Made by a program: the position numbers and the translations under genes. Below are positions 1 to 17,897 of a DNA stretch of 32,000 nt, one piece after another; the first letter of the stretch is position 1, and the number at the start of each line of letters is the position of its first letter. The notes under the pieces were generated by a model, which was given only the letters and a program-made list of their open reading frames with translations, was not told the origin of the DNA and did not search any database. The DNA comes from Rhodopseudomonas sp. NSM. GTDB lineage: Bacteria; Pseudomonadota; Alphaproteobacteria; Rhizobiales; Xanthobacteraceae. The DNA lies in the NCBI GenBank assembly GCA_052445935.1, contig JBQTCH010000003.1. One strand, given 5' to 3'.

Positions 1-294
1 AGCCGCATGGGCATCGGAACGGGTCCTTTCGCCGCAGAGTCGCTTCCTGCACGGGGACCAGATCGAAACTTCACGGCGGATGAGCATAGGGGAATCAACC
101 GTATCGGGTTGGAGACGGGTTGCCAGACGTGCGGTACCCGCGATCCAGGGACGCCACGTGGAAATTTTGTCATCGACCATCAGCCGCCGACTGCCCTAAA
201 TTCCATCGGTCTTGCTCAGCGCCTATACCCGCAGTGTCTATCGTGCAGCTTGAAGCAAGGCGGATATGTCTCCTATCTGAAAGGACGTCGCTAG
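1..294 (+). CDS. Polymorphic toxin, C-terminal part only (5' end lies outside the window); zinc-ribbon HNH endonuclease domain
   Basis: Frame +1 is open from nt 1. TGCQTCG...NFVIDHQPP...YPQCLSCSLKQG gives the CxxC / DHxxP / CxxC-x-K layout of classical HNH nucleases. Hand alignment to the C-terminus of 4945..5808 gives about two-thirds identity over ~79 aa. The TAG stop at 292-294 is followed 1 nt later by a small ORF that is paralogous to the one after 4945..5808. Confidence 0.6.
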   Translation, partial: SRMGIGTGPFAAESLPARGPDRNFTADEHRGINRIGLETGCQTCGTRDPGTPRGNFVIDHQPPTALNSIGLAQRLYPQCLSCSLKQGGYVSYLKGRR

Positions 295-295
295 A

Positions 296-664
296 ATGCC
301 CGTCTCATGCGACATAGCCCCGTTGAATTCGCTTGTCCTCATTCACGGCGCGCGTGGGTGGACGCCTCCGTTGCCTGTCGATGGTCAATTGATTTGGTCG
401 ACGCCGAGCTGCGTCGCAACTGCCTGCTTTCCGGAGGTCGAGGGGCCGACAAAGATCGTCATGGGAGCTGCGCCGGAGGTGAACCCTGGCACGGACCCGG
501 TTTTCACCGGGCTACTCGAAACGCCGGACCGGCTTGTCACCATCAGCACCGTTTCCGATGATAGCCCTATCCTGTCGTACGAGACACCCGATGTCGTCAC
601 AACAGTCAGAATTTGGCACAGTCATCCTCGGTGGCCGGAGATTGTCACGGTTGGGCTTGGCTGA
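296..664 (+). CDS. Putative cognate immunity protein (122 aa) for the HNH toxin at 1..294
   Basis: The ATG lies 1 nt after the toxin stop. It has the same length as 5815..6183 and colinear similarity to it (shared IW-S/A-TPSC, VR-I/V-W and C-terminal V-x-V-G/L-LG motifs). That paralog occupies the same position after the paralogous toxin. No family was recognised by eye. Confidence 0.6.
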   Translation: MPVSCDIAPLNSLVLIHGARGWTPPLPVDGQLIWSTPSCVATACFPEVEGPTKIVMGAAPEVNPGTDPVFTGLLETPDRLVTISTVSDDSPILSYETPDVVTTVRIWHSHPRWPEIVTVGLG

Positions 665-689: not shown

Positions 690-1334
690 ATGTCTTCGCT
701 GACCAAGATATTCTCGCAAGTGGATTTGGAAGGGAGCGTGGCTGCGCTGGCAAGTGAAATGAGGAAGAGAACGAGTTCCGACAGATTTCCCTGGGATGGC
801 TGGCCTTCACTAACCGAGTTGGAGCCGCTGTTTCTCGCCCCGGACGATCAGAGGTGGCCCTATTGGAAGGGCTACGATGAGTGGGCGTTGTATATCGAAG
901 GGTTGGACGGCACCGATGGCTTGCCCGATGTCGATCAGGGCAAGGTGTATCTGACGATGACTGGCACGCCCGATTTTGGCGTCATGCTCTCCTACGAAAA
1001 GTGGGACGGGCGAACAATGCAGTCGCAGGATTGTTTCTCCAAGGGCGACATGAGCCGCATCCGGGAATGGCTGCGGACGCTGCATGACGATCTGCGCCCA
1101 ATCGGTCTGTTCATTCCCTACGCGCAAGCCTGGCCCGCCGTGAAGGAGTTCATGGAGCGCGACGGCGAGCTGCCGACCAGCATCGAGTGGGTCGACGCCG
1201 AAGCTTTGCCGCCGAATACGTTTCGCTTTCCGGGATTCTTTCGGCCGGGCCCGGAGCCGCGGGTGCTGCGCGAGGAAGACATCAACGACGAATCGCCGGA
1301 CGGCAGTGATCCGTTCAAATCCTTGCGCGGCTGA
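690..1334 (+). CDS. Hypothetical protein (214 aa), possibly an additional or orphan immunity protein
   Basis: A long ORF on the cassette strand with an acidic, Trp-rich, non-repetitive translation that does not look like a GC-shadow ORF. It lies between an immunity gene and the portal 3' fragment. There is no clear Shine-Dalgarno sequence and no recognised family. Confidence 0.5.
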   Translation: MSSLTKIFSQVDLEGSVAALASEMRKRTSSDRFPWDGWPSLTELEPLFLAPDDQRWPYWKGYDEWALYIEGLDGTDGLPDVDQGKVYLTMTGTPDFGVMLSYEKWDGRTMQSQDCFSKGDMSRIREWLRTLHDDLRPIGLFIPYAQAWPAVKEFMERDGELPTSIEWVDAEALPPNTFRFPGFFRPGPEPRVLREEDINDESPDGSDPFKSLRG

Positions 1335-1510: not shown

Positions 1511-1732
1511 ATGTCCGACCTGATCAGGACGTTCACCGAGCGCGGCGATCTCGCGCATCTCGCATTGCTGCTGTGGGCCTTTGCGGCGTCGGCGGGGCTG
1601 TGGTTCGCGCTGCGCGAGCTGGCGGCGGCGTCGCGGCGGTTCGACGATTTCGTCCACGCGCTGGAATTGTTCAACCGCCGGGCTCGGCGGCGCCGCGCGC
1701 CGGTGGCGCACGACGATGATCCCACCGACTAG
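1511..1732 (+). CDS. Small hypothetical membrane protein (73 aa) in the position of RcGTA g3.5
   Basis: The ATG is preceded by GAGG about 10 nt upstream. There is a hydrophobic stretch LAHLALLLWAFAASAGLWFAL. The link to g3.5 is positional only (between the portal end and the protease). Confidence 0.45.
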   Translation: MSDLIRTFTERGDLAHLALLLWAFAASAGLWFALRELAAASRRFDDFVHALELFNRRARRRRAPVAHDDDPTD

Positions 1733-1924: not shown

Positions 1925-2100
1925 CAACGCGGCCCCGTGTCCCGCACGCGGTGCAACGCGAAGCGTTGCGCCGCAGATGCGGGACCCCGGTTTCCGCGAT
2001 CGCGGCGTGTCGCGAAACCGGGACCCCGGATCTGCGACGCGGCACTGCGCGCCGCATCGCGTCCGGGGCACGGCTGCAAATCCTTCCGTCGCCTTCAATC
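1925..2100. repeat. Cluster of GC-rich intergenic palindromes (REP-like)
   Basis: A hairpin gcaacgc-gaa-gcgttgc lies at 1953-1969. A long imperfect inverted repeat gcagatgcgggaccccggtttc ... gaaaccgggaccccggatctgc spans 1973-2035. Further short palindromes follow downstream. Confidence 0.45.
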
Positions 2101-2141
2101 GCTCGAACTCGTCATCACTCCGCTCATTTGCGAGGCCGCTG

Positions 2142-2798
2142 ATGCTTGCCCCGTTGTCCGATGCCGGGCTCGCGCCGGCGCGTCTGATGCTGGCTGCCGA
2201 CGGCAGCATCGAAGGCTATGCCAGCCTGTTCGGCGAGATCGACCAGGCGCGCGACATGGTGATGCCGGGCGCGTTCACGCAGACGCTGAAGCACCGCGGT
2301 GTGCGAAAAATCCCGATGCTGTTCCAGCACGACCCGAGCGAGCCGGTCGGAATCTGGCTCGACCTCGTCGAGGATTTTCGCGGCCTCCGCGCGCGCGGCC
2401 GGCTGATCCCCGACGTCGCGCGCGGACGTGAACTCCTTGCATTGCTGCGCGAGGGCGCGATCGACGGGCTGTCGATCGGCTATCGCACCGTGCGCGGCCA
2501 GATCGACCCGAAGACGCGGGTGCGGCGGCTGTATCAGGTCGACCTCTGGGAAATCTCGATCGTCACCTTTCCGCTGCTGAACGGCGCGCGCGTCGGCACC
2601 GTCAAGCAGACGCCGCGCCTGTCGCTGCAACGCCGCGTCGCGGAAGCGGCATGGCGCAGCATGCAGAGCGCGCCATCGCAATCGGCCAGCGCCGCGGATG
2701 CACCGGCGTTGCCCGCGCGGCGCGGGCGGACGGCCCTGACGCTGTCCTCCCGCGCCGATCGCAAGCGCGCCTTCGCAGGGATCAGCCGGAGCCGGTGA
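2142..2798 (+). CDS. HK97-family prohead (capsid maturation) protease, RcGTA g4 equivalent
   Basis: GYASLFGEIDQARDMVMPGAF, MLFQHD, GLSIGY and LWEISIVTFP are motifs typical of HK97/GTA prohead proteases. The internal ATG at 2142 is preferred because 1977-2141 of the tracked ORF overlaps the REP-like palindromes. The 3' end is uncertain because the last ~65 codons are Ala/Arg/Ser-rich low complexity. Confidence 0.85.
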   Translation: MLAPLSDAGLAPARLMLAADGSIEGYASLFGEIDQARDMVMPGAFTQTLKHRGVRKIPMLFQHDPSEPVGIWLDLVEDFRGLRARGRLIPDVARGRELLALLREGAIDGLSIGYRTVRGQIDPKTRVRRLYQVDLWEISIVTFPLLNGARVGTVKQTPRLSLQRRVAEAAWRSMQSAPSQSASAADAPALPARRGRTALTLSSRADRKRAFAGISRSR

Positions 2799-2896: not shown

Positions 2897-3631
2897 ATGT
2901 GGCGCGCGACCGAGAGCACCGCGGCGCATCAGCGCGCGCGCTTCATGCAGCCGAATGCGACGCTCTGGATGCGCCCGGACGCCGAGCGTTGGATCAGGCC
3001 CGACGTCGCGCGTTTTCTCGCGCCGGGTGCCCTGCCGGAAGATGTCTTCCCTGCACTGGATCGCAAGTACAACCCAAACCAACCGCGGGTGCCGAAGGGC
3101 AATCCGGACGGCGGCGAGTGGACGCTTGGCGGGCTTGGAGCGCGCTGGTCCATCGATCTGACGGGTGTCCCGTCCGATCTTTCAGGCCGACCCCCGGCTC
3201 GAGTTCGCCTCGCCCAAATAGGCAAGCTGATCACTGATATCTTTGGATTGCCGTATTACGAACCAGGCGGTCATCACGAGGCCGCCAGGGCCATGTACAC
3301 CAAGTGGGACCTTCGACCGGAAACGCGAAAGGTCTTTGACAATTCGACGACGGGTAAGTTACCGAGCGGTAAGTGGGTGTAGTCGTTGGATGGTGGTCTC
3401 CTCCGTGAGCACTATTGGGATAAGCGTCACGCGGCGTACAATAAGGCTGTCGAAGAACTAAGCGAACGCTTTCTTGAAGAGAAGAAAATTACGCCTAAGA
3501 TGATGACGCCACACCAAGCGGAAGAATTGTGCGCGCGGATCAGACTGTCGGAAGTGCCCGAAATCAAAGACTACAACCGCGCGATCCGAATGTTGAGGCA
3601 GGTGTATCGACTTAGATACGGTCGAGAGTAG
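2897..3631 (+). pseudogene. Polymorphic toxin A: conserved N-terminal module plus a GHH-signature HNH/EndoVII-like nuclease domain, interrupted by an in-frame TAG at 3380-3382
   Basis: The ATGTGG start is conserved with 4945 and 6508. The N-terminus reads MWRATESTAAHQRARFMQPNATLWMRPDAERWIRPDVARFLAPG...NQPRVPKGNPDGGEWT. The C-terminal part carries LPYYEPGGHHE. The tracked ORFs 2651..3382 and 3386..3631 are in the same frame and are separated only by the TAG. Together they align colinearly with the single ORF 6508..7116 plus its extension. Confidence 0.7.
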
Positions 3632-3642: not shown

Positions 3643-4044
3643 TTGACGAACTCCAGGATCCGTTTCAGTCGCGAAGAATTCGTGCCGCTTTGGACCGCGC
3701 TGCGCGAGCGTATCATCGCTTGTTTCGAAAGCACGGGTAAGATCATCGATCCTTTCGGTCGAAGGGACTTCTGGGTGGTCGACGAGGACCTCGGCGTCGC
3801 GCTGGTGGAAGTCGAGATCATGACACTCGACCTGCTCGATCCGCCGGTGATCTACGCCCTGCGCGACCTGCTGCAAGAGTATCCGGGCTTCGCCATCACC
3901 GTGTCGGTGGTGCCGCCTGGTGGCGCCAAGTGGCCCGGAATGGGCATCTCGCTGTTTCAAGGCGAGATCATCGACGGGTTGAAGCGCTCCTTTCTGCCGC
4001 CGCCCTATCGAAATCTGCACTACCTGGGATCTCGTCCAGAATAG
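3643..4044 (+). CDS. Putative immunity protein for the GHH-type toxin (133 aa)
   Basis: GGAGG at 3633-3637 lies 5 nt before the TTG start, which is 11 nt after the toxin reading frame ends. It is clearly paralogous to 7283..7663 (DFWVVD, VEIM-LDLL-P-VIY-LRDLL, G-IIDGLKR, LP-PY) and more distantly to 4261..4665. Confidence 0.7.
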   Translation: MTNSRIRFSREEFVPLWTALRERIIACFESTGKIIDPFGRRDFWVVDEDLGVALVEVEIMTLDLLDPPVIYALRDLLQEYPGFAITVSVVPPGGAKWPGMGISLFQGEIIDGLKRSFLPPPYRNLHYLGSRPE

Positions 4045-4260: not shown

Positions 4261-4665
4261 TTGCACCATGCCATCGTGCAGGTGATCGACAGTTATGTCT
4301 GCGAGCGCGCGAAAGCTGGTCGCGCGGTCTGGGTGTCTTCGAAACGTAGTCCGGGCTGTTATTCTCAGTTCATCACCTTGTACGACATCCAGTTGTTGCA
4401 GCCGGAGATGCTGGCTGCGTTGCAGACGTTGCTCGCCGGGTATCGCGACTGGTCGATTGAAATCCAGGTTGCTGCCCCGGACGGGGAGCGCACATGGGAT
4501 TGGCGCGACATGACGATCGATATTTCGCACGATCGTATCATCGACCGGCTTCAGCATGATCTGTTGCCACCGCATCTGCGGCAGGTGCGGTTCGGGACGA
4601 CGATCGATGAGTACAACGAGGAGCTCGCCGCGACGGTGCGGCGGCTGATGCGCAAGCCCGTCTAA
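4261..4665 (+). CDS. Orphan immunity-family protein (divergent paralog of 3643..4044 and 7283..7663)
   Basis: It shares ...LYDIQLLQPEMLAALQTLLAGY...IIDRLQHDLLPPHL with the VEIM-LDLLQP...IIDGLKR...LP-PY pattern of the other two. The start is uncertain: only a TTG/CTG is available after the upstream in-frame stop at 4180-4182. Confidence 0.55.
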   Translation: MHHAIVQVIDSYVCERAKAGRAVWVSSKRSPGCYSQFITLYDIQLLQPEMLAALQTLLAGYRDWSIEIQVAAPDGERTWDWRDMTIDISHDRIIDRLQHDLLPPHLRQVRFGTTIDEYNEELAATVRRLMRKPV

Positions 4666-4722
4666 GAAGCGCCTCCCGGCGCCCACCCGCCATAGTACAG
4701 ACAGATCGATACGAAGACACGG

Positions 4723-4880
4723 GTGCGACGGCTGTATCAGGTCGATCTCTGGGCGATCTCGATCGTCACGCTTCCGCTGCTCGCCGGCGCGCGCGTGCCA
4801 CCGTCAAACACACGCCGCTGCAATCGCCGCAGTTCGCGTCATCGCGATCGGCCAGCGCCGCGGATGGACCGGCGCGAGAT
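4723..4880 (+). pseudogene. Duplicated, degenerate 3' end of the prohead protease gene
   Basis: RRLYQVDLWAISIVTLPLLAGARV matches RRLYQVDLWEISIVTFPLLNGARV of the protease (nt ~2521-2592) at 21 of 24 residues. Nucleotide similarity continues with deletions through atcggccagcgccgcggatg. No protease body lies upstream. Confidence 0.7.
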
Positions 4881-4944: not shown

Positions 4945-5808
4945 ATGTGGCGCTCCAGCGACAGCACCGCCGCGCATCAGCGCGCGCGCTTCATGCAACC
5001 AGATGCGGCACGCTGGATGCGGCCGGATGCCGAGCGATGGATCCGGCCCGATGTCGCGCGCTTTCTCGCGCCCGGCACCGACCCCGCGACGATCTTCCCG
5101 GCGCTCGACCGCAAGTACAGCCCGAACCAGCCGCGGGTACCGGCCGGAAACCCGGATGGCGGGCAGTGGACGAATGGCGAACTGGGAGGAGGGGCTTCGT
5201 CTGCCCGCCCGGGGCGCAATGATCCGCGCGTGATTTCCGACGCTGACCTCGAGCCCGTCAAGCCTGGGCAGCAACACGCTCAAGCGCGCGGGCGGCGCGG
5301 TGGCGGGACGGTCATCATCAACGGCCAGCGGTTCGAATTGACGCCGGGGCAAGGAGCACGGCTGACAGCGGTGCAAGCTCGCGCTGACGCTGCGATCGCT
5401 CGGGTGCGGGAAGCCGAACCCTCGTGGAAGCCGCCCCCCAATGACTACCAGACGCCGGAGGGGATGATCCGGGCCTATGAGGCCGACGCTGCGGTCGCCC
5501 AGGCGAGAATCAATCAATTGGCAGCGGGAGGAGCCCTGCCGGGCCCGTACGCCGGCGAATCAATTTCGGCAAGAGGGCCGAATCGGGATTTTCGAGCTTC
5601 GGAACGACGCGAGATCAATCGAATTGGCGCCGACACCGGCTGCCACACTTGTGGAAAGTTGGAACCCGGGACCAGCCTTGGTAACTTCGTCGCAGACCAC
5701 CAACTCCCGACCAATATCAATCCGATCAGCCGTGCACAGCGTCTCTATCCGCAATGTCTTTCGTGTAGTCGGAAGCAAGGACCGTTTGTCCGCGACCTGA
5801 AGAAGTAG
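4945..5808 (+). CDS. Polymorphic toxin B (287 aa), the only uninterrupted full-length copy: conserved N-terminal module plus linker plus zinc-ribbon HNH endonuclease domain
   Basis: GAGG lies 7 nt upstream of the conserved ATGTGG start. The N-terminal 78 aa differ at only 3 positions from toxin C. The C-terminus TGCHTCG...NFVADHQLP...YPQCLSCSRKQG has the HNH layout and is paralogous to 1..294. An immunity-type ORF follows. Confidence 0.75.
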   Translation: MWRSSDSTAAHQRARFMQPDAARWMRPDAERWIRPDVARFLAPGTDPATIFPALDRKYSPNQPRVPAGNPDGGQWTNGELGGGASSARPGRNDPRVISDADLEPVKPGQQHAQARGRRGGGTVIINGQRFELTPGQGARLTAVQARADAAIARVREAEPSWKPPPNDYQTPEGMIRAYEADAAVAQARINQLAAGGALPGPYAGESISARGPNRDFRASERREINRIGADTGCHTCGKLEPGTSLGNFVADHQLPTNINPISRAQRLYPQCLSCSRKQGPFVRDLKK

Positions 5809-5814: not shown

Positions 5815-6183
5815 ATGAATCAGACCACGAGATGCGCGCCGCCGAATTCGATCGTCTTCCTGGAAGACCCGGCGGGCGGCAAGTCGCCGAAGATCGACGA
5901 TCGCCCGGTGAGCATATGGGCGACACCATCGTGTATCATCGTCGGCACGCTCTGTTCGATGGATGGTGAGACCGAACTGATCGTGTCGGACCAACCGAAT
6001 GATGTGCCGCCGACACGGCCGACGTTCGACAGTTTTCTCCAAACGCCGAGCCGCGTCATCGAGGTGTCGACCTCCGAGCGCGAAATACTCCTGCGCTGTC
6101 CGGTGGAAACACACTTCACCCATGTTCGCGTCTGGACCAACCATCTCAGCGAACCGGACCGGGTTTTGGTCGTGCTCGGGTGA
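5815..6183 (+). CDS. Putative cognate immunity protein (122 aa) for toxin B
   Basis: The ATG lies 6 nt after the toxin stop. It is a paralog of 296..664 with the same length and shared motifs. Confidence 0.65.
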   Translation: MNQTTRCAPPNSIVFLEDPAGGKSPKIDDRPVSIWATPSCIIVGTLCSMDGETELIVSDQPNDVPPTRPTFDSFLQTPSRVIEVSTSEREILLRCPVETHFTHVRVWTNHLSEPDRVLVVLG

Positions 6184-6507: not shown

Positions 6508-7248
6508 ATGTGGAGCTCATCCGCGAGCACCGCCGCGCATCAGCGCGCGCGCTTCATGCAGCCCGATGCGGCGCGGTGGATGCGGCCAGACGCGGATCGC
6601 TGGATCCGGCCCGATGTCGCGCGCTTCCTTGCGCCGGGCACTGATCCGGCGACGATCTTCCCCGCGCTCGACCGCAAGTACAGCCCTAACCAGCCGCGGG
6701 TACCGGCCGGAAACCCGGATGGCGGGCAGTGGACAAATGGTGGCATCAGCGCTCGCTGGGCCGTCGACGATGTCCTCCTCAGCGATCCACAGGATGATCA
6801 GCTCCTCGATGGCGTTCAACTGACTCAGGTCGGGAGCTCAGTCACTGACGCCGATGGACTTCCCTACTATGCAACCGGCGGCCATCACGAAATGCCGAGG
6901 GGTGTCTACAGGAAATGGAACTTGCAGCCCGAGACCGAACGGGTATTCAATCGATCGACGACTGGCTCGCTTCCACAGGGAAGCCATATCGAAACGGATC
7001 AAGGTTTGCTCCGAGGACACTACTGGGATGGACCGGATGGTGCTCATGCCAAGTACAACAACGCCGTGTCTGACTTGAGTGAGCGCTTCATGAGAGAACA
7101 ACGGATCACGCCTTGAGTGATGACGCCCGATCAAGCCGAAGAGCTTCTGACGCGTATCAGGGAGTCGGACGTGCCGGAAATACGTGACTACAACCGGGCA
7201 ATTCGGATGCTGAGGAGGGTGTTCCGATGGCGCATGGGCAGAGAGTAG
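6508..7248 (+). pseudogene. Polymorphic toxin C: conserved N-terminal module plus GHH-signature nuclease domain, interrupted by an in-frame TGA at 7114-7116
   Basis: It uses the conserved ATGTGG start and carries LPYYATGGHHE. After ...RITP the in-frame TGA is followed, in the same frame, by VMTPDQAEELLTRIRESDVPEIRDYNRAIRMLRRVFRWRMGRE* (stop at 7246-7248). This matches the uninterrupted equivalent stretch of toxin A. Confidence 0.7.
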
Positions 7249-7282: not shown

Positions 7283-7663
7283 ATGACGCGGGAGAAATTC
7301 CTGCAGACCTGGAGCGAGTTGCGAGATCGCGCCATTGCCTATCTCGAAGGCTTTGGAAAGGAGATCGATCCGCTCGGCCACAAGGACTTCTGGGTCGTCG
7401 ACGATGATTATGACCTCTATCTTCTCCAGGTCGAGATCATGAGTCTCGATCTGCTGCAGCCGGCGGTGATCTACGGACTGCGCGATCTGCTCCGTGACTA
7501 TCCCGATTTCGCGATGACCGTTGCCGTTGTGGCGCCCCACGGCATCACGTGGCCGCGGATGGGTATCACGCTGTTCGAAGGCCAGATCATCGACGGGCTG
7601 AAGCGCGGATCGCTGCCGCTCCCCTATCAGGAGATTCAATATAAGGGCTCTCGGCCGGATTGA
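7283..7663 (+). CDS. Putative immunity protein for the GHH-type toxin (126 aa)
   Basis: GGAG lies 9 nt upstream of the ATG. It is a paralog of 3643..4044. Confidence 0.7.
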   Translation: MTREKFLQTWSELRDRAIAYLEGFGKEIDPLGHKDFWVVDDDYDLYLLQVEIMSLDLLQPAVIYGLRDLLRDYPDFAMTVAVVAPHGITWPRMGITLFEGQIIDGLKRGSLPLPYQEIQYKGSRPD

Positions 7664-7761: not shown

Positions 7762-7790
7762 CGCCGTGGCCTCCCGCCGCGGCGTTTTCG
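7762..7790 (+). terminator. Intrinsic-terminator-like hairpin immediately upstream of the capsid gene
   Basis: A 9-bp stem cgccgtggc / gccgcggcg (one G-U pair) has the loop ctccc and is followed by TTTTCG at 7785-7790. It lies 37 nt before the capsid ATG. Confidence 0.4.
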
Positions 7791-7827: not shown

Positions 7828-9084
7828 ATGGACTACGACATCACCACCACCGCGCCGGAGACCAAGGCCGGCTTCGCTTCGTCCGAGCGCGATGCGCAGG
7901 ACGAGCTGCTGCGCGTCCACGAGGAATTCAAGGCGGCCAATGACGAGCGCCTGGCCGCGCGCGAGCGGCGGCGCGGCGACGTGTTGCTGGAAGAGAAGGT
8001 CGACCGGATTTCGGATGCGATCGACACCCGGCTGAAGCGGATCGAGGATTTCGCGCTGAAGCAGGCGCGGCCGCGGCTCGACGGCCGCCGCGCCGAGAGC
8101 TTCGCCGGCAGCCGCGAGCACAAGAGTGCGTTCGAGGCCTACGTCCGCAGCGGCGACGCCGCGCCGCTGCGCGCGATCGAGACCAAGGCGCTGTCGGTCG
8201 GCTCCAATCCGGACGGCGGTTACCTCGTGCCGGTCGAGCTCGAACACGCGATCGCCTCGCGGCTTTCGTCGATCTCGCCGATCCGGAGCCTCGCCTCGGT
8301 GCGCGAGATTTCCGGCAGCGTCTACAAGAAGCCGTTCATGACCACGGGGCCCGCCACCGGCTGGGTCGGCGAGACCGACGTGCGGACGCAGACGGCCTCG
8401 CCGGTGCTCGACGCGCTGTCGTTCCCGGCGATGGAGCTGTACGCGATGCCGGCCGCGACCGCGACGCTGCTCGACGACTCGGCGGTGAATATCGACGAGT
8501 GGATCGCCGCCGAGGTCGAACTCACCTTCGCGGTGCAGGAGGGCGCGGCGTTCGTCAACGGCGACGGCGTCAACAAGCCGAAGGGCTTTCTCGCCGCGCC
8601 CACGGTGGCGAACGCGTCGTGGAGCTGGGGCAGTCTCGGTACTATCGCCACCGGCGCCGCCGGCGCGTTTCCCGAGGACGATCCGTCCGACGTGCTGGTC
8701 GATCTGATCTACGCGCTGAAGGCCGGCTATCGCCAGAACGGCGCCTTCGTGATGAACCGCAAGACCCAGGCCACGATCCGCAAGTTCAAGGATGCGTCCG
8801 GCAGCTATCTGTGGCAGCCGCCGGCGCAGGCGGGCGGCCGCGCCTCGCTGATGACGTTCCCGCTGATCGAGGCCGAGGACATGCCCGACGTCGCGGCGAA
8901 TTCGCTCAGCGTCGCGTTCGGCGACTTCCGCCGCGGCTATCTGGTGGTCGACCGGCTCGGCGTCCGCGTGCTGCGCGACCCGTATTCCGCCAAGCCCTAC
9001 GTGCTGTTCTACACCACGAAGCGGGTCGGCGGCGGCGTGCAGGACTTCGACGCGATCAAGCTGCTGAAGTTCGCGGCGAGCTGA
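7828..9084 (+). CDS. HK97-family major capsid protein, RcGTA g5 equivalent (418 aa)
   Basis: AGGAG lies upstream of the ATG. The N-terminal coiled region (delta-domain-like) is followed by GGYLVP, AFVNGDG-NKPKGFL and YRQNGAFVMN, motifs typical of HK97 capsids. Its position after the protease is also as expected. Confidence 0.93.
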   Translation: MDYDITTTAPETKAGFASSERDAQDELLRVHEEFKAANDERLAARERRRGDVLLEEKVDRISDAIDTRLKRIEDFALKQARPRLDGRRAESFAGSREHKSAFEAYVRSGDAAPLRAIETKALSVGSNPDGGYLVPVELEHAIASRLSSISPIRSLASVREISGSVYKKPFMTTGPATGWVGETDVRTQTASPVLDALSFPAMELYAMPAATATLLDDSAVNIDEWIAAEVELTFAVQEGAAFVNGDGVNKPKGFLAAPTVANASWSWGSLGTIATGAAGAFPEDDPSDVLVDLIYALKAGYRQNGAFVMNRKTQATIRKFKDASGSYLWQPPAQAGGRASLMTFPLIEAEDMPDVAANSLSVAFGDFRRGYLVVDRLGVRVLRDPYSAKPYVLFYTTKRVGGGVQDFDAIKLLKFAAS

Positions 9085-9123
9085 ACGAGCATCCGAACGC
9101 ACGATCCAGACTCACGATCCAAG

Positions 9124-9150
9124 CGGCGCGCCCGATCGGCGCGCCGTTTT
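9124..9150 (+). terminator. Rho-independent terminator after the capsid gene
   Basis: A perfect 9-bp GC stem cggcgcgcc / ggcgcgccg (9124-9132 paired with 9138-9146) has the loop cgatc and is followed by TTTT at 9147-9150. Confidence 0.6.
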
Positions 9151-9194
9151 CGATTCCAGCCCCTGTTTTGGATCCTCGGTGAGGACAACGTCGC

Positions 9195-10022
9195 ATGCCG
9201 CACCAGGACGATGCCTGGCTGCGCCATCAGCAGACGCGATGGTTGCGGCCCGACGGCGACCGCTGGGTGCGCCCGGACGCCGCGCGGTTTCTGAAGCCAG
9301 GTAGCAACCTGGTCGAGGTCTTCCCGGCGCTGGCGTTCAAATACAGCCCAAACCAGCCGCGCGTGCCGGCCGGCCATCCGGACGGCGGGCAGTGGACGAG
9401 CGGGGGAGGGGGTGAGGTCTCGGACTTTGCGGACCCCATCGGCAGTACGCAGCCGAGCTATGCGCTGCCCATGGGCGACGTTGCGATCGGTGACGTTGCC
9501 GTTGGAAGCGACGATCTGTTTTCCATCGTGTCGAAACAGCCCGAGCGCACTGGTGTCAGGCTTGCGGGCGATCTACCGGAAGGCAGCGATCCGGCTCCGG
9601 AGGTGCCGACGGAGCCTCCGCCGGAAATTCCAGCCAAGAAACCCAGAACCAGTGCAGAGCGGACGGCCATTCTTCGAGCTGTCGAAAATTGGGCAGTGCG
9701 ACATGCTGGTCTACCAGCTAAGATGTTGTTCGGTGCGATCGAGAATATTGAATGGCTCAAGGATCGGACAGATCTCATCCGAGCAGCAACCGATCCGCCG
9801 AAGAGCCTCCTGGAGTTGCAGAATGAAGTCGGCAGGAAGCGCGCGGGCTACGACGTTCATCACATTGTTGAAAGAACCTGGGCGGAGTATTTTGGCTTTT
9901 CGCGATCGCAGGTCAATGATCGGTCGAATTTGGTGAGTATTCCGCGACTTAAGCATTGGCAGATCACCGGATGGTACATGACGCGGACCGATGAGTTCGG
10001 TGGTTTGTCGCCGCGGGATTAA
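9195..10022 (+). CDS. Polymorphic toxin D (275 aa): N-terminal module (subtype 2) plus an HNH nuclease domain of the xHH type; probably truncated by a TAA
   Basis: GAGGA lies 9 nt upstream of the ATG. The N-terminus reads MPHQDDAWLRHQQTRWLRPDGDRWVRPDAARFLKPG...NQPRVPAGHPDGGQWT. The C-terminal part carries GYDVHHIVE...NDRSNLVSIPRLKHW. In the same frame after the TAA at 10020-10022, 25 more codons (..VGLYALRRFGVLEP*) match the C-terminus of toxin E and end in a GTGA overlap with the next gene. Confidence 0.7.
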   Translation: MPHQDDAWLRHQQTRWLRPDGDRWVRPDAARFLKPGSNLVEVFPALAFKYSPNQPRVPAGHPDGGQWTSGGGGEVSDFADPIGSTQPSYALPMGDVAIGDVAVGSDDLFSIVSKQPERTGVRLAGDLPEGSDPAPEVPTEPPPEIPAKKPRTSAERTAILRAVENWAVRHAGLPAKMLFGAIENIEWLKDRTDLIRAATDPPKSLLELQNEVGRKRAGYDVHHIVERTWAEYFGFSRSQVNDRSNLVSIPRLKHWQITGWYMTRTDEFGGLSPRD

Positions 10023-10096: not shown

Positions 10097-10468
10097 GTGA
10101 AAGCGATCGATCTTGAAGCCATGTCGACGGACGAACTGGTGCAGCGCTTCTCCGCTATAGGAGTCGCACAAGATCAGGCGCTGCTCGGATTCAGGCTCAA
10201 GGAGTTCAATCGGCTTTTCGAGAAAATGGCCGATGTGTCCGAGGCGCTGAAACGACGTGACGGCGATCAGCGGCGCGCGCTGCTGGTGCTGTTCAGCTAT
10301 CCGAATATGCAAGTGCGATTGAAGGCTGCCAAACATACGCTCGCAGTCGCGCCGCTCGAAGCGCGCCAGCAGCTCGAAGCAATTGTGGCTAGCAGGTGGT
10401 TCCCGCAAGCGGGTGACGCCGGCATGTGCTTGTCGTTGCTGGACGACGGGACTTTCAAACCGAAATGA
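10097..10468 (+). CDS. Putative immunity protein, DUF2019-like (123 aa)
   Basis: The GTG start overlaps the ancestral toxin stop (GTGA at 10097-10100). ELVQRF...ALL...FNRLF...LK.R.GDQRRALL.L..YPN.QVRLKAA.HTLAVAP.EAR..LE.I...W.PQAGDAGM.L..LD.G.FKP matches my memory of DUF2019 proteins. It is a close paralog of 11563..11934. Confidence 0.7.
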   Translation: MKAIDLEAMSTDELVQRFSAIGVAQDQALLGFRLKEFNRLFEKMADVSEALKRRDGDQRRALLVLFSYPNMQVRLKAAKHTLAVAPLEARQQLEAIVASRWFPQAGDAGMCLSLLDDGTFKPK

Positions 10469-10517: not shown

Positions 10518-10595
10518 GCGATGATCATGCTGCTGAAATTTTCGGCGAGCTGATCGGCCCGGTCCGCCCGGAACGGCCTGATCTCGACATCCAAA
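10518..10595 (+). pseudogene. Degenerate duplicate of the capsid gene 3' end
   Basis: gacgcgatgatcatgctgctgaaattttcggcgagctga aligns with the capsid terminus gacgcgatcaagctgctgaagttcgcggcgagctga (DAIKLLKFAAS*). The similarity runs on into the copied terminator. Confidence 0.55.
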
Positions 10596-10627
10596 CGGCG
10601 CGCCCGATCGGCGCGCCGTGTTCGTTT
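10596..10627 (+). terminator. Second copy of the capsid terminator hairpin, with a decayed T-tract
   Basis: It has the same cggcgcgcc-cgatc-ggcgcgccg hairpin as 9124-9146, here followed by tgttcgttt. Confidence 0.4.
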
Positions 10628-10664
10628 GCGGCCTTCGGTTCATCCGCAACGAGGATGCTGCCGT

Positions 10665-11566
10665 ATGCCGCATCACGACCAGGCCTGGCTGCGCCATCAG
10701 TAGATGCGATGGCTGCGGCCCGATGGCGACCGCTGGGTGCGCCCGGACGCCGCGCGCTTTCTGAAGCCAAGTAGCAACCCGTCGAGGCCTTTCCGGCGCC
10801 GGCGTTCAAATTCAGCCCGAACCAGCCGCGCGTGCCGGCCGGCCATTCGGACGGCGGGCAGTGGACGAGTGGCGGGGGTGGGGCCGCCGAGTCTGCAGAT
10901 CCCAGTGGGAGCGGGCCCGCGAGCGCGGCGCAGCCGATGGGCGACGTTGCGATCGGCGACGCCGCGGCCCAAAGCAATGATCTGTTTTCAATCGTGTCGA
11001 AAGAGCCAGACCGCTCCGGCGTGCGGTTGGCGGGCGATCTGCCGGAGGGCAGCGATCCGGCGCCTGGAGTGCCCGGCAACGAGCCGCCGGAAATTCCGCA
11101 AAAGAAACCTGCCTATAGTGCAGATCGAACGAGATATTTTCGGGCTGCTGCCGACTGGCTTGCACGAAGCTCGGGTCTTCCCGGACTGCTTTACGAAGGC
11201 TCTATGAGATCCGTGGAGTGGCTGCGAGATTGGCATGATGTTATTTCGGCTGCGCGAGACGGTCCCAAGCCGTTGAGGGAGTTCATGGACGGTGTTGGTC
11301 AAGCTCGCCCGGGCTACGATGTCCATCACATCAACGAGGTAAAGGCGGCAAAGCTGGATGGTTATAGCCTGTTGGTGATCAACGATCCTTCGAATCTTGT
11401 CAGCATTCCGCGCCTGAAGAACTATCAGATCACGGTATGGTATTCAGCACCAAGCGTCGAATTTGATGGTTTGTCTCCGGGAGAATTCCTGCGTGGCAAG
11501 AGCTGGGAGACGCGCCGCGAAGTCGGGTTGAGGGCGCTGCGAAAATTTGGAGTGTTGGAGCCATGA
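10665..11566 (+). pseudogene. Polymorphic toxin E: same architecture as toxin D, inactivated by an in-frame TAG (10701-10703) and a 1-nt deletion near 10779
   Basis: The sequence atg ccg cat cac gac cag gcc tgg ctg cgc cat cag TAG corresponds to cag CAG in toxin D. aacctggtcgagg in D is aacccgtcgagg here, which shifts the frame from +3 to +2. The downstream ORF 10832..11566 carries PGYDVHHINE...NDPSNLVSIPRLKNY and an intact C-terminus ...FGVLEP*. Confidence 0.7.
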
Positions 11567-11934
11567 GCAAACAGGATCTTCGCCAAATGGCGACGCCGGA
11601 GCTCGTGGCTCTATTTGCGAAAGTCGTGGTCGGACAGGACGAGGCCTTGCTCGGACATCAGCGAGCGAAATTCAAACGCTTGTTCGACATGATGCGAGAT
11701 ATTGCGAACGAATTGAAGGGACGCGAAAGTGATCAGCGGGTCGCGCTGTTGAGCCTCTTCGAATACCCGAATATGCAGGTGCGGCTTCAGGCGGCCAAGC
11801 TGACGCTCGCGGTCGCTCCCCTGGAGGCGCGCAAACAGCTCGAAGCTATCGCGTCCACAAAGTGGTATCCGCAGGCCGGCGACGCCGGTATGTGCCTATC
11901 CTTTCTGGACGATGGAACATTCAAGCCGAAATGA
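11563..11934 (+). CDS. Putative immunity protein, DUF2019-like (123 aa)
   Basis: There is an ATGA start/stop overlap with toxin E. It is a close paralog of 10097..10468. Confidence 0.7.
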   Translation: MSKQDLRQMATPELVALFAKVVVGQDEALLGHQRAKFKRLFDMMRDIANELKGRESDQRVALLSLFEYPNMQVRLQAAKLTLAVAPLEARKQLEAIASTKWYPQAGDAGMCLSFLDDGTFKPK

Positions 11935-13196: not shown

Positions 13197-13967
13197 CTAC
13201 TTCGCCAGCGTCGCGCCCCAGCTCCGCGCCGTGGTCTCGATCCAGTCGCGATACAGCGTCAAGGGCGTGATGCCGGTGAGGCCGCCGCAGCCGCTCGCGT
13301 TGGCGGCGCCGGTCGACCACGACACCACGCCGATCACCACCGCGCGGCCGTTCTGCTGTTGCAGCGCCGGGCCGCCGGAATCGCCGGTGCAGGCGCCCTG
13401 GCCCTCGCGGGCGTTGTTGGTCGCCGGATCGACCAGGCGGATCTGCAGCCGGCCGGGGCGGCCGGTGGCGATCAGTTCGGCGGCGCGCACCACGCCGCCG
13501 CTCTTGCCATCGCCGCGCTGCGCCACGCCGATGCCGGCGACGGTGAAGCTCTGCCCCGCGGAGAGCGGATCGCCCGGCGCGGCGATCGCGACCGGGCTCC
13601 TGCCGGGCAGGGGAGCCGCGAGCTGCAGCAGCGCGATGTCGGCGGTGGCGCGGTTGGCCTTGATCGCGCGCAGATCGAATTGCGGATGCGCAGCGAGGCG
13701 GCGGATGTCGCGGAGCTGCGGCTGGCCCTGCGCGTCGCGCTGCACGATCTTGTAGTCCGCGCCGGGCGCGACGCAATGCGCGGCGCTCAGCACCAGATCG
13801 GGCGCGATCAGCGCGCCGGAGCAGAAATTGCCGCGCGAGCCGACGATGGTGACGATGGCGCGGCCGAGGCCGTCGCTGCGCTCGCGTGCGCCGCCGACCA
13901 TCGCGACGCAAGGCGTGGCCGCGAGCGCGGCTGTGAACAGCAGTGCGAGTTTCAACGAGCGGATCAT
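13197..13967 (-). CDS. Secreted trypsin-like (S1 family) serine protease (256 aa)
   Basis: The N-terminus is signal-like (MIRSLKLALLFTAALAA). LSAAHC (catalytic His), DIALL (Asp) and GDSGGP (Ser) are in the canonical order. The start is taken at the ATG rather than the upstream TTG. Confidence 0.85.
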   Translation of the reverse strand: MIRSLKLALLFTAALAATPCVAMVGGARERSDGLGRAIVTIVGSRGNFCSGALIAPDLVLSAAHCVAPGADYKIVQRDAQGQPQLRDIRRLAAHPQFDLRAIKANRATADIALLQLAAPLPGRSPVAIAAPGDPLSAGQSFTVAGIGVAQRGDGKSGGVVRAAELIATGRPGRLQIRLVDPATNNAREGQGACTGDSGGPALQQQNGRAVVIGVVSWSTGAANASGCGGLTGITPLTLYRDWIETTARSWGATLAK

Positions 13968-14029
13968 GGCGAGCTTCAAGAGCCTCGCCGCCGCCGCGCT
14001 GTCAACCGGATGATCTCGGAGGGAAGAAC

Positions 14030-14599
14030 ATGTCGGCGATTTTGCTGGCGGGGCCGGCTGTGGAGCCGTGGACGCTCGCCGAACTGAAGACCTTTCTGCG
14101 CGTCGACCACGACGACGACGATCCGGTGATCGCGTCGCTGCTCGCCGCGGCGCGTAGCCAGATCGAGGCGATGACGCGGCGCGCGCTGCTGGCGCAGAGC
14201 TGGCGGATCACGCGCGACGCCTGGCCGCGCGACGGCCGCATTGCGCTGCGGATCGGGCCGCTGCAGGCGCTGAGCGCGGCGCGTGTGTTCGATGCCGACG
14301 GCACTGCGCATGAGGTCGACCTCGCGCGGTTCGTGATCGACGCCGCAAGCGGGACGATCGCCGCGCCGTTTGGGTCGCTGCCGCAGCCGGGGCGCAGCGT
14401 CGCAGGCATCGCGCTCGACGTCGAGCTCGGTTACGGCACGCAAGCCTCGGACGTGCCCGAGCTGCTGCGCCACGCGGTGCGCACGTTGGTCGCGCACTGG
14501 TACGACAACCGCGGCATGGCGGCGATCGGCGGCAGCGTCGCGATACTGCCGGGCAGCGTGGCGGCGATGATCGCGAGCTTCCGGGTGGCGGCGCTATGA
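14030..14599 (+). CDS. Phage gp6-like head-tail connector protein, RcGTA g6 equivalent (189 aa)
   Basis: GGAGGGAAG lies upstream of the ATG at 14030. LAELKTFLRVDHDDDDPVIASLLAAARSQIEAMTRRAL is the typical N-terminal signature of this family. Its position relative to the following genes also fits. Confidence 0.8.
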   Translation: MSAILLAGPAVEPWTLAELKTFLRVDHDDDDPVIASLLAAARSQIEAMTRRALLAQSWRITRDAWPRDGRIALRIGPLQALSAARVFDADGTAHEVDLARFVIDAASGTIAAPFGSLPQPGRSVAGIALDVELGYGTQASDVPELLRHAVRTLVAHWYDNRGMAAIGGSVAILPGSVAAMIASFRVAAL

Positions 14600-14913
14600 T
14601 CGATCCGGGCAGGCTGAGCACGCGGCTGACGCTGGAGGCGCCGGTCGAGAGCGGTGACGGGCAGGGCGGCGTGGTGCGCAGCTACGCGGCGCAGGCCGTG
14701 GTGTGGGCGCTGGTCGTGCCGCACGCGGCGCGCGAGGGCGTCGATGCCGATGCCGATCGGGCGATGTTGCGCGTGACCATCACGCTGCGCGGCGGCGTTC
14801 AGCTCACCCGGGCGCATCGGCTGATCGATGGCGCGCGGATCTATCGCATCGTGTCGTGGCGCCCGCGCGAAGGCGGCGCGCTGATCGAGATCGACGCGGA
14901 GACGCGGCTCTGA
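14596..14913 (+). CDS. Head-tail adaptor / head-closure protein, RcGTA g7 equivalent (105 aa)
   Basis: There is an ATGA overlap with the connector gene. The size, the pattern (LTLEAP...DGQGG....Y......WA.V.P...RE) and the position are typical of this family. Confidence 0.8.
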   Translation: MIDPGRLSTRLTLEAPVESGDGQGGVVRSYAAQAVVWALVVPHAAREGVDADADRAMLRVTITLRGGVQLTRAHRLIDGARIYRIVSWRPREGGALIEIDAETRL

Positions 14914-14915
14914 GC

Positions 14916-15014
14916 GTCATCCTGAGGAGCCCGGCTTAGCCGGGCGTCTCGAGGATGGCGGCAGGCACCCGTGGGCATCCTTCGAGGCTCGCTGCGCTCG
15001 CACCTCAGGATGAC
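14916..15014. repeat. MITE/REP-like palindromic element, family 1
   Basis: It has the gtcatcctgagg ... cctcaggatgac termini. It starts 3 nt after the adaptor stop and ends 28 nt before the next start. Confidence 0.8.
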
Positions 15015-15041
15015 GGCTTCGCTGCAACAAGGATGTTCCCC

Positions 15042-15452
15042 ATGCCCACCGCACCTGCGGCGCTGCGCGCTGCGATTCATCAGGCGCTGACTTCCGACAG
15101 CGGACTTCTCGCCGCGCTCGGCGGGGCGCGCATCTACGACGAGCCGCCGCGCGACGCGGCGCTGCCCTACGTCACGCTCGGCGAGGCGCGGATCAGCGAC
15201 GCCTCCGCCGACGACGCGCCGATGCAGGAGCATCAGCTGACGCTGCACGCCTGGTCGCGGCAGGGCGGGCACAAGGAGGCGCATGTCATCACCGGCGCGC
15301 TGCTGCAGGCGCTCGACGACGCGCCGCTGCAGCCGGCCGGCCACCGCCTGGTCAATCTGCGCTTCGCGCTCGCCGATATCCGCCGCGAGGCCGACGGCCG
15401 CACCTATCACGCATTGGTGCGGTTCCGCGCCGTCACCGAACCTGTCAGTTAG
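15042..15452 (+). CDS. DUF3168-family protein, RcGTA g8 (tail terminator) equivalent (136 aa)
   Basis: AAGGA lies 8 nt upstream of the ATG at 15042; the longer tracked ORF begins inside the repeat element. IYDEPPRDAALPYVTLGE...H.W motifs and the position are typical of the family. Confidence 0.8.
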   Translation: MPTAPAALRAAIHQALTSDSGLLAALGGARIYDEPPRDAALPYVTLGEARISDASADDAPMQEHQLTLHAWSRQGGHKEAHVITGALLQALDDAPLQPAGHRLVNLRFALADIRREADGRTYHALVRFRAVTEPVS

Positions 15453-15462
15453 GAGAAGACGC

Positions 15463-15870
15463 ATGGGCGCACAGAAGGGCAAGGATCTGCTGGTCAAGAT
15501 CAGCGACGGCGGCAACTACGTCACCGTCGCGGGGTTGCGCAGCCGCAGGATCGCGTTCAACGCCGAGTTGGTGGACATCACTCACGCCGAATCCGCCGAG
15601 CGCTGGCGCGAGCTGCTGGCCGGCGCCGGCGTGCGCCGCGCCTCGATCTCCGGCCGCGGCCTGTTCAAGGATGCCGCCTCCGACGCTTTGGTGCGAAGTG
15701 CGTTCTTCAACGGGCTGATCAGCGACTGCCAGCTGATCGTGCCGGATTTCGGCGCGATCTCCGGGCCGTTCCAGATCGCGGCGCTCGAATTCGCCGGCGA
15801 GCACAATGGCGAGGTGACGTTCGACGTCACGCTGGAGAGCGCCGGCGCGCTGAGCTTCGCAACCTTGTGA
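15463..15870 (+). CDS. Major tail protein (TP901-1-like), RcGTA g9 equivalent (135 aa)
   Basis: AGGAGAAG lies upstream of the ATG at 15463. GKDLLVKI...YVTVAGLRS..I.FN.E.VD.T and the C-terminal VTFD.TLES.G pattern are typical of the family. Confidence 0.85.
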   Translation: MGAQKGKDLLVKISDGGNYVTVAGLRSRRIAFNAELVDITHAESAERWRELLAGAGVRRASISGRGLFKDAASDALVRSAFFNGLISDCQLIVPDFGAISGPFQIAALEFAGEHNGEVTFDVTLESAGALSFATL

Positions 15871-15877
15871 GGGGATC

Positions 15878-16192
15878 ATGGCCAACAGACATCGCGGTGA
15901 GATCGAGGCGGAGATCGGCGGCCGGCGGCGCACGCTGGTGCTGACGCTGGGGGCGCTCGCCGAACTGGAGAGCGCGTTCGCGGCGTCCGATCTGGTGGCG
16001 CTGGCGCAGCGCTTCGGCAGCGGGCATCTGTCGGCGCGCGATCTGTTGCGGATCATCGCGGCGGGCCTGCGCGGCGCAGGAGAGGCAGTGAGCGACGACG
16101 AGGTCGCGGCGATGACGGTCGCGGGCGGCGCGACGGGCTATGCGATGATCGCGGCCGAACTGATCGCCGCGACCTTCGGCGAAGCGGCGTGA
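15878..16192 (+). CDS. GTA-family tail assembly chaperone-like protein, RcGTA g10 equivalent (104 aa)
   Basis: MANRHRGEIEAEIGGRRRTLVLTLGALAELESAF is the characteristic start of this family. The position after the major tail gene also fits. Confidence 0.8.
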   Translation: MANRHRGEIEAEIGGRRRTLVLTLGALAELESAFAASDLVALAQRFGSGHLSARDLLRIIAAGLRGAGEAVSDDEVAAMTVAGGATGYAMIAAELIAATFGEAA

Positions 16193-16392
16193 CGCCGTTT
16201 CCCTGGGCCGAGGCGATGCAATTCGGCTTCGGCGTGCTGCGGCTGTCGTCCGATCAGTTCTGGCGGATGACGCCGCGCGAACTCGCCAGCGCGCTGACCG
16301 GCGCGCGCGGCGCGATCGCGGCGCCGCTCGATCGCGGTGGTCTCGACGACCTGATGCGACGTTTTCCCGATCACGAGGAGCAAGCGCGATGA
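16189..16392 (+). CDS. rcc01693-family small tail protein, RcGTA g10.1 equivalent (67 aa)
   Basis: There is a GTGA overlap with the upstream gene. FPWAEAMQFGFGVLRLSSDQFWRMTPRELASAL is the family signature as I recall it. Confidence 0.8.
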   Translation: MTPFPWAEAMQFGFGVLRLSSDQFWRMTPRELASALTGARGAIAAPLDRGGLDDLMRRFPDHEEQAR

Positions 16393-16982: not shown

Positions 16983-17117
16983 CCCTCCCCCTTGCGGGGA
17001 GGGTCGCTCGCGCAGCGAGCGGGGTGGGGGGCCGCGGGCACTGCGCGCGTGGCCACCCCCACCCGGCCCGACGCCGCTGCGCGTCGCCGGTCCACCCTCC
17101 CCGCAAGGGGGAGGGTG
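16983..17117. repeat. MITE/REP-like element, family 2 (terminal ccctcccc-loop-ggggaggg hairpins)
   Basis: ccctcccccttgcggggaggg lies at the left end and accctccccgcaagggggagggt at the right end. The shared core gcgaagc..gggtg.gggg.ccgcgggcac is also found in 17898..18021. The element begins directly after the tape measure stop. Confidence 0.75.
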
Positions 17118-17131
17118 AAGAGAGCACGACC

Positions 17132-17231
17132 GTCATCCTGAGGAGCGCGCTCTTGCGCGCCTCGAAGGATGGCAACGCACACCGCGGCCCTGCTTCGAGG
17201 CTCGCCCTGCGGGCGAGCACCTCAGCATGAC
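17132..17231. repeat. MITE/REP-like palindromic element, family 1
   Basis: The termini are gtcatcctgagg ... cctcagcatgac, with one mismatch in the right terminus. It lies 14 nt from the family 2 element. Confidence 0.75.
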
Positions 17232-17891: not shown

Positions 17892-17897
17892 GGACTG

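Follow-up and report, generated by a model that had tools for sequence, protein, structure and literature searches.

Putative polymorphic toxins with a two-part N-terminal module inside an RcGTA-type gene transfer agent cluster of Rhodopseudomonas

The window analysed in this work (a stretch of 32,000 nt from contig JBQTCH010000003.1 of Rhodopseudomonas sp. NSM) is a head-tail cluster of a gene transfer agent (GTA) of the RcGTA type into which several small cassettes are inserted. The subject of this report is a short module of 72-78 amino acids (aa), five copies of which lie at the N-termini of genes in these cassettes. The cluster was identified through NCBIfam matches to GTA_megatron (1783 bits), RcGTA_tape, the Rcc01695-family distal tail protein, the hub, the NlpC/P60 peptidase, the connector and the TP901-1-type major tail protein. 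The RcGTA_tape match scored 155 bits, which is under its curated cut-off of 220; the gene set that characterizes RcGTA-type clusters, i.e., tape measure, Rcc01695-type distal tail, hub, NlpC peptidase and megatron, is present in full. Its downstream part (13943-25724) runs in the order connector, major tail, tape measure, distal tail, hub, NlpC peptidase, megatron and DUF2793. The structural genes have a G+C content of about 70%, whereas that of the inserted cassettes is 58-64%.

An earlier, sequence-only reading of the window had described one novel module of about 75 aa as a candidate trafficking or capsid-targeting domain. All five copies (A to E, Table 1) are present where that reading had placed them, except that copy A ends at position 3130 and not at 3125. 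The peptides it quoted are correct, and copies B and C differ, as it said, at exactly 3 of 78 residues. The tandem repeat is genuine as well: the unit is PDAxRW[MI]R, its period is 8 residues, and subtype 1 (copies A, B and C) has one unit more than subtype 2 (D and E), which is visible as a gap of 8 columns in the alignment. At the DNA level, two repeat families, D1 and D2, connect the five copies at 62-90% identity, and the 101-nt stretch encoding NQPRVPAG..GGQW is the only one common to all of them (72-90% identity). Every copy begins with an ATG codon, and a GAGG-like ribosome-binding site is found upstream of four. The N-terminus is polar, and the Kyte-Doolittle maximum over an 11-aa window is 0.6-1.5 for the module; this hydropathy scan, for which no dedicated predictor was used, revealed no signal-peptide-like hydrophobic segment and fits the claim that a signal peptide is missing. 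Two other claims needed correction. Only the last copy had been considered broken, and copy E indeed carries a TAG codon and a frameshift, but toxin genes A and C are also interrupted, each by a single in-frame stop codon at a different site (TAG at 3380, TGA at 7114), with frames that are otherwise intact and conserved to the end; only genes B and D are intact. Similarly, the sharp end of similarity after GGQWT-x-G holds between toxin types only, since A and C, and likewise D and E, are each of one type over their whole length.

In order to establish the distribution of the module, a profile of 13 modules was searched against representative proteins at E <= 1e-3, which gave 2880 matching proteins. 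Matches to the whole profile always lie at the extreme N-terminus, in proteins of 65-460 aa. A genomic scan with one genome per species yielded 273 confirmed relatives, and 73 loci were kept; lineages were taken from the best 80 of the 273, and these are mostly Hyphomicrobiales (Rhodopseudomonas, Nitrobacter, Afipia, Tardiphaga, Pseudolabrys, Xanthobacteraceae and others). Three typical Nitrobacteraceae-type GTA clusters (L035, L039 and L042) lie on contigs labelled as metagenome-assembled genomes of an 'uncultured archaeon', Sediminibacterium and Tepidisphaeraceae, and these labels are likely binning errors. The full module occurs almost exclusively in RcGTA-type clusters: 104 of the 123 copies in the 73 loci lie at most 600 nt downstream of a GTA gene, which is the capsid gene in 58 cases, the protease in 39, the portal and the terminase in 3 each, and g12 in one. 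This is the head-block location by which the MuF family of phage-borne toxins is recognized. The remaining copies are mostly second cassettes or lie at contig edges, and the only clearly non-GTA copy (L058) adjoins a transposase fragment. In one genome a cassette separates the tail genes g12 and g13 (L062:9962-11108), and other cassettes directly follow the terminase gene (L056, L065 and L070). Insertion sites thus extend beyond the protease and capsid genes, and adjacency to a head gene is usual but not obligatory. The module subtype follows the site, as subtype 1 is found in 34 of 41 copies after the protease and subtype 2 in 45 of 58 copies after the capsid gene, a pattern which fits recombination confined to each site.

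The genes that carry the five copies belong to three toxin types (A/C, B and D/E), and each type has its own type of small gene downstream. Toxins A and C are paired with 3643-4044 and 7283-7663, toxin B and the upstream toxin fragment with 5815-6183 and 296-664, toxin D with 10097-10468, and toxin E with 11563-11934. These downstream genes switch type with the toxin and can be regarded as putative immunity genes. The open reading frame (ORF) of 214 codons at 690-1334 may be a further immunity or accessory gene. Toxin B matches a hypothetical protein of Rhodopseudomonas sp. NSM at 100% identity. Its C-terminal domain, GCHTCG...DHQ.P...YPQCLSCS, also ends an Rhs protein (P0300), where it follows a PxxxxDPxG motif. 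Among 70 module-bearing proteins, Pfam assigned RNAse_A_bac (the RNase A of CdiA-CT) to five and MafB19-deam to two; the mean column identity of these proteins is 13% overall, and the module columns are nearly invariant. The C-termini recovered from the 73 loci (n = 91) fall into 19 sequence families, and the B-type toxins of the wider family share a conserved middle region, NDPRVISDA..., after the junction. The family therefore combines a constant N-terminus and varied C-termini with downstream immunity-like genes, displaced cassettes and C-termini common to other delivery systems, which are the marks of polymorphic toxins. As far as sequence can tell, the window genes are polymorphic toxins of toxin/immunity cassettes.

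The middle domain of toxin B (5257-5529 of the window, about aa 105-195) is a confidently folded unit of a beta-hairpin and two long helices. A domain like it is found on toxins with different ends, either CxxC..DHQ or RNase A (L062:10305-11108; P0298), and this shared domain may serve in cell entry, as does the N-terminal part of CdiA-CT regions.

Recombination has left scars in the cassettes. The 3' end of the protease gene is copied before toxin B (Table 1), which is a sign that the toxin B cassette was displaced by recombination, and a second piece of the protease gene, at 4829-4874, matches 2663-2708. The hairpin distal to the capsid gene is copied before toxin E. In at least 10 loci of other genomes, a second cassette is preceded by a 3' fragment of the capsid gene. 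The limits of the scars in the window coincide exactly with the module and with the ends of the genes beside it. The capsid-distal hairpin has a 12-bp GC stem followed by a U-rich tract and lies just 3' of the capsid stop codon; its copy at 10589-10633 was duplicated along with the module before the broken toxin E, and a similar hairpin lies 5' of the capsid gene, at 7762-7784.

The module is a composite of a repeat half and a junction-motif half. The N-terminal half, with the PDAxRW[MI]R repeats, is found only at the N-terminus of small toxins. The C-terminal half, which is more strongly conserved than the rest, consists of the motif K[YF]xPxQPRxPxGxxxGGxW; in the alignment of 70 members, K57, Q62, R64 and G73 do not vary at all, and conservation reaches at least 90% at P66, G68, W75 and T76. 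The module had no match in Pfam, NCBIfam or PHROGs. In line with the sequence-only reading, none of the Rhs/PAAR, LXG/WXG, filamentous haemagglutinin and MuF trafficking families was matched, and the module belongs to no known secretion-adaptor family; this result and the near restriction to GTA clusters both favour that reading.

The strongest matches of the profile were to proteins of 1000-2700 aa, in each of which profile positions 45-69 were matched 4-11 times. These are polyvalent proteins with ART-PolyVal, GNAT, NUDIX, Acb1, Zeta-toxin and exotoxin-type ADP-ribosyltransferase domains. A pattern search with the motif found 114 instances in 24 polyvalent proteins, from 3 to 9 in each and approximately one between successive domains, with the consensus hydrophobic-x-x-K[YF][DSN]P[NDS]QPRxP[KA]G[ST]xxGG[QR]W. 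The likeness of PR-x-P-x-G-x-x-x-GG-x-W to linkers of head-associated phage polyvalent proteins, which the sequence-only reading had suggested, is therefore real. One of the polyvalent proteins opens with a MuF-like minor head domain. A tblastn search of isolated-phage GenBank records with the module and a polyvalent protein returned nothing useful. When a degenerate DNA pattern for the motif was scanned in IMG/VR, at least 120 stretches were obtained, and among the matches listed there were 116 motif-bearing ORFs of viral contigs, 33 of them portal fusions (from three Pfam portal families) and 3 with Phage_Mu_F. The domains attached to the motif in these listed ORFs include RNase A (11), ADP-ribosyltransferases, Zeta toxin, Ntox37, CdiA_C and MafB19 deaminase. 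Some of these 'viral' contigs are themselves GTA-like.

In a further GTA cluster, L074 (7123-13167), the portal protein itself bears a C-terminal toxin. Its portal gene codes for the complete portal, to which LLAKFDPNQPRVPPGNSDGGQWT links a domain of about 150 aa, and two orphan cassettes follow, each opening with a portal 3' fragment and the motif, one with a B-type toxin and the other with an RNase A toxin. Judged from its genes, L074 is a portal-based polymorphic toxin array. Since the motif is carried by portal, MuF and polyvalent proteins, it joins an effector to something inside the head. In proteins without a fused anchor, its place is taken by the WxRPDA repeats or, for certain relatives, by a coiled-coil segment. 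The junction thus reads as a widespread head-cargo joint of phages, and of the module once described as novel only the repeat half is specific to GTA toxins.

Several other explanations were considered. Chance or low-complexity similarity is ruled out by the E-values and by the census of contexts. A mere DNA-level recombination handle is ruled out by codon use, since the invariant residues use many synonymous codons (in 81 distinct DNA versions, 6 for Arg, 4 for Gly and 4 for Pro); the constraint therefore acts on the protein and not solely on DNA identity for recombination. Derivation of the module from the C-terminal tail of the portal was rejected: among the 54 portal C-termini recovered from the 73 loci, nearly all have the same endpoint and none has a module or toxin extension, and no convincing similarity between the module and these tails was seen. 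Mimicry of a capsid maturation site (capsid KALSVGSNPDGGYLVP, toxin RVPAGNPDGGQWT) was a speculative idea, and no clear covariation was found in 73 genomic and 35 viral loci. The N-arm of the capsid protein, SNPDGGYLVP (8203-8232, aa 126-135), has NPDGG in common with AGNPDGGQWT of the toxins, through mimicry or perhaps by coincidence. PRxPKGS resembles an AT-hook, a speculative likeness on which we do not rely.

We also built an AlphaFold2 model of toxin B from an alignment of 79 sequences. For the module, the pLDDT (AlphaFold2's per-residue confidence) was 47-80; its PDAxRW units form short helical turns, and a small hairpin bends at NPDGG. Residues 80-116 form a disordered linker, and the middle (about 120-195) and C-terminal (200-287) domains have pLDDT above 90. 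A weakly ordered module followed by confidently folded domains is what one would expect if the module were a targeting peptide that becomes folded upon binding a partner. According to the model, the junction motif is probably a small beta-hairpin around the NPDGG turn; a search of the PDB with the motif profile found no solved structure that contains it.

The remaining features of the window are collected in Table 1. On the opposite strand, in the interval between the capsid-side cassettes and the g6 connector, trypsin-like serine peptidase gene(s) are found at 13197-13979 (-) in the window and at L074:15329-16938 (-), and the window and L074 are two distantly related GTA clusters that both have such a peptidase there. 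Past the GTA cluster, the region 25860-31854, with a G+C content of 51-61%, encodes on its minus strand a methyltransferase, a glycosyltransferase of the PMT_2 type and a radical SAM enzyme, and was probably acquired as an island unrelated to the GTA.

Table 1. Features of the window, with positions counted from its first nucleotide.
Feature	Position	Strand	Remarks
C-terminal end of upstream toxin, B-type domain	7-294	+	66% identity to toxin B residues 200-286; start outside the window
Immunity-like gene of the upstream B-type toxin	296-664	+	34% identity to the gene 3' of toxin B, E 1e-17
214-aa ORF after the first immunity-like gene	690-1334	+	no Pfam, NCBIfam or PHROGs match
Small conserved gene of the portal-protease interval, g3.5-like	1511-1732	+	peptide SLIRTFTERGDLAHLAL also upstream of the L074 protease
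GTA prohead serine protease g4	1977-2798	+	Pfam Peptidase_S78, E 3.8e-39
Module copy A, subtype 1	2897-3130	+	toxin gene A 2897-3631; in-frame TAG 3380-3382
Immunity-like gene, A/C-type toxin	3643-4044	+	60% identity to 7283-7663, E 1e-56
Orphan immunity paralogue, A/C type	4261-4665	+	31% identity over 74 aa to 3643-4044, E 9e-12
Duplicate of protease gene 3' end before toxin B	4702-4796	+	87% identity to 2499-2593
Module copy B, subtype 1	4945-5178	+	PDAxRW[MI]R repeats at about 4990-5073
Junction motif KYSPNQPRVPAGNPDGGQWT inside module B	5113-5172	+	invariant K, Q, R and G in 70 family members
Toxin B gene, intact	4945-5808	+	module, disordered linker, helical middle domain, CxxC..DHQ..CxxC C-terminal domain
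Immunity-like gene, toxin B	5815-6183	+	34% identity to 296-664
Module copy C, subtype 1	6508-6741	+	toxin gene C 6508-7248; in-frame TGA 7114-7116
Immunity-like gene, toxin C	7283-7663	+	60% identity to 3643-4044
GTA major capsid protein g5, HK97-type	7828-9084	+	Pfam Phage_capsid, E 2.4e-86
Terminator-like GC hairpin after the capsid gene	9117-9161	+	copy at 10589-10633 before toxin E
Module copy D, subtype 2	9195-9410	+	intact toxin D gene 9195-10022
DUF2019 immunity-like gene, toxin D	10097-10468	+	Pfam DUF2019, E 1.1e-43
Module copy E, subtype 2, broken	10665-10880	+	TAG and frameshift; remaining toxin ORF 10832-11566
Second D/E-type immunity-like gene, for toxin E	11563-11934	+	translation resembles 10097-10468 by eye only
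Rest of the RcGTA-type cluster	13943-25724	+	TIGR02215, TIGR02126, RcGTA_tape, TIGR02217, TIGR02218, TIGR02219, GTA_megatron; DUF2793

We consider it fairly probable that the module serves a GTA-embedded polymorphic toxin-immunity system as its conserved N-terminal addressing region, and that its role is that of a capsid-cargo address. The docking to the procapsid, portal or scaffold that had been suggested before is still a reading of the genomic context. Under this explanation, two to four PDAxRW[MI]R units would draw a free-standing toxin into the assembling GTA procapsid and would thus replace the covalent fusion to portal or MuF used in related systems. The junction motif could then be a hinge, or else the cleavage site of the neighbouring prohead protease, at which the cargo would be freed. 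The toxins would be made only when the GTA genes are expressed and would be loaded into heads in low copy. They would leave with the DNA into recipient cells, of which those with the matching immunity gene would survive. Homologous recombination at the conserved module and at the 3' ends of the protease or capsid genes may bring in new cassettes, and older ones would shift downstream and then decay. We hold the mechanical core of this scheme, in which the repeats anchor the free toxin in the procapsid, the junction serves as a hinge or an S78 protease site and the toxin leaves with the DNA, with moderate confidence; loading into the capsid, processing at the motif, ejection together with the DNA and killing of non-immune recipients are steps that we infer. 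What the sequences show directly is the make-up and conservation of the module, its GTA setting, the toxin/immunity architecture, the motif common to portal, MuF and polyvalent proteins, and the scars of recombination.

A number of points weigh against this explanation. We infer the presence of toxins in the particles from genes alone, and three of the five copies in the window are pseudogenes. The three toxin types of the window gave no match that indicates an activity in Pfam, NCBIfam, a PDB sequence search or Foldseek; more specifically, PHROGs, Pfam and NCBIfam returned nothing for the three types, and PDB sequence searches with the C-terminal regions of toxins B and D returned nothing either. 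RcGTA heads are small, and we know of no internal cargo protein reported in the published RcGTA structure. RcGTA DNA enters the periplasm first, so a toxin that acts in the cytoplasm would need a further entry step. To our knowledge, the production of GTA particles has not been demonstrated for Rhodopseudomonas. Moreover, some cassettes follow the terminase gene or separate g12 from g13, so that being expressed together with the GTA may outweigh adjacency to head genes.

The same unusual insertion sites bring to mind toxins of the colicin kind. Such toxins would be freed at lysis, the GTA locus would ensure their expression in the lysing subpopulation, and the module would be an epitope for uptake or translocation. 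The toxin genes are free-standing and occupy several intergenic sites, including those after the terminase and between g12 and g13, and the module is as poorly ordered as colicin translocation domains. DGGQW is also similar to DG[ST]GW, the TolB box of group A colicins, although this likeness is speculative and is not relied on here. However, the motif couples effectors covalently to portal and MuF proteins, inside heads, and it recurs in polyvalent proteins, where import of the TolB type would make little sense and where the Asp of the TolB box is not conserved. A module of 75 aa without a receptor-binding domain also fits a colicin badly, and we regard this explanation as unlikely.

The tight linkage of the cassettes to the cluster, the scars whose limits fall exactly on the module and on the ends of neighbouring genes, and the subtype that follows the insertion site (34 of 41 and 45 of 58, as above) could alternatively reflect a self-directed role. 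The toxins would stabilize the locus like a toxin-antitoxin system, or they would kill the producer or fragment its DNA, and the module would be a recombination handle. The variety of synonymous codons speaks for selection on the protein and not on DNA identity, and a purely intracellular toxin would not require a conserved leader of 75 aa. In addition, the C-terminal domains also occur on delivered toxins (Rhs, CdiA-CT and MafB), and polymorphism together with orphan arrays and an orphan immunity gene is characteristic of strains that antagonize each other. This role seems to us more doubtful still than the colicin-like one. Last in probability, and in our opinion hardly credible, is export by a type VI, type IV or type I secretion system encoded elsewhere, with the module as an adaptor tag and the GTA cluster as an integration hot spot. 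It is true that the C-terminal domain of toxin B is also found on an Rhs protein and that the L058 copy lies outside any GTA cluster. Nevertheless, Pfam detected no PAAR, Rhs, VgrG, LXG or haemagglutinin domain in the window toxins and the 70 family members, there are no secretion genes among the flanks examined, the 104 of 123 copies directly behind GTA genes come from several Hyphomicrobiales lineages, and the motif is common to portal, MuF and polyvalent proteins.

Why bacteria retain GTAs is a long-standing puzzle, as the benefit of DNA transfer is weak and indirect. The cassettes suggest a second payload for GTAs. If head-loaded toxins exist, the GTA would be a kin-discriminating weapon or a means of enforcing kinship, and the benefit of the toxin would be direct and selectable, unlike that of DNA transfer. 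As a broader and tentative proposal, to which we give somewhat less than an even chance, the GTAs of Rhodopseudomonas, Nitrobacter, Afipia and related Hyphomicrobiales deliver head-loaded toxins, carried by the leader or by portal fusion, together with DNA; the toxins would be freed or hinged at the junction and injected along with the DNA, and the particles would tell kin from non-kin by immunity genotype. The motif would in that case be a general head-cargo junction signal across tailed phages, and if it acts in loading or processing, it could become a portable tag for packing chosen proteins into HK97-fold capsids. Our literature searches turned up no paper connecting GTAs with polymorphic toxins, and none in which the motif is described.

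Among known systems, the nearest are the toxins fused to MuF, which have been proposed as capsid cargo (PMC3482391, PMC5576092); two of them, Bxa and Apk2, were found experimentally to be toxic and have adjacent immunity genes (PMC11699363). Like the window toxins, MuF toxins combine a constant N-terminus with variable C-terminal toxins and an immunity gene on the 3' side, they lie in the head-morphogenesis block beside portal, protease and capsid, and some polyvalent proteins headed by MuF use the same junction motif. The window toxins, however, lack a MuF domain (PF04233, PF06152 or relatives, according to Pfam and PHROGs) and have a repeat leader of 75 aa instead of a fold of about 300 aa. 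The host element differs as well, being a temperate phage for MuF toxins and a GTA here, where multi-cassette arrays with full leaders occupy several intergenic sites. Portal-fused effectors and polyvalent proteins (PMC5512222) share the junction K[YF]xPxQPRxPxGxxxGGxW before an effector domain, and portal-effector fusions are present within a GTA cluster, too; a description of the motif was not found in the text of PMC5512222. Polyvalent proteins carry at least two disparate effectors, whereas the window toxins are free-standing, accompanied by immunity-like genes and single-effector, with a middle domain added in toxin B.

The orphan arrays of CdiA-CT and Rhs systems resemble the window in their sharp junction, in displaced cassettes that keep a piece of the upstream constant region, in toxin and immunity types that switch together, and in common toxin domains (the RNase A type, and the toxin B domain on Rhs). 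They differ in that the GTA leader is tiny and forms neither a filament nor a shell, in that the GTA orphans keep the full leader and a ribosome-binding site, and in the proposed vehicle, which is the capsid. A looser parallel may be drawn with the capsid-targeting sequences and internal proteins of T4 and with encapsulin peptides, where a short terminal peptide leads into an HK97-fold shell and may be removed by the prohead protease. The T4 capsid-targeting sequence has about 10 aa and is cleaved at L/I-x-E, and encapsulin cargo peptides are C-terminal; the module has no sequence similarity to either, so this is an analogy only. Because the window toxins have no MuF domain and are not polyvalent, the locus lies outside both of these families, but it probably works like the MuF and portal systems and shares their junction motif.

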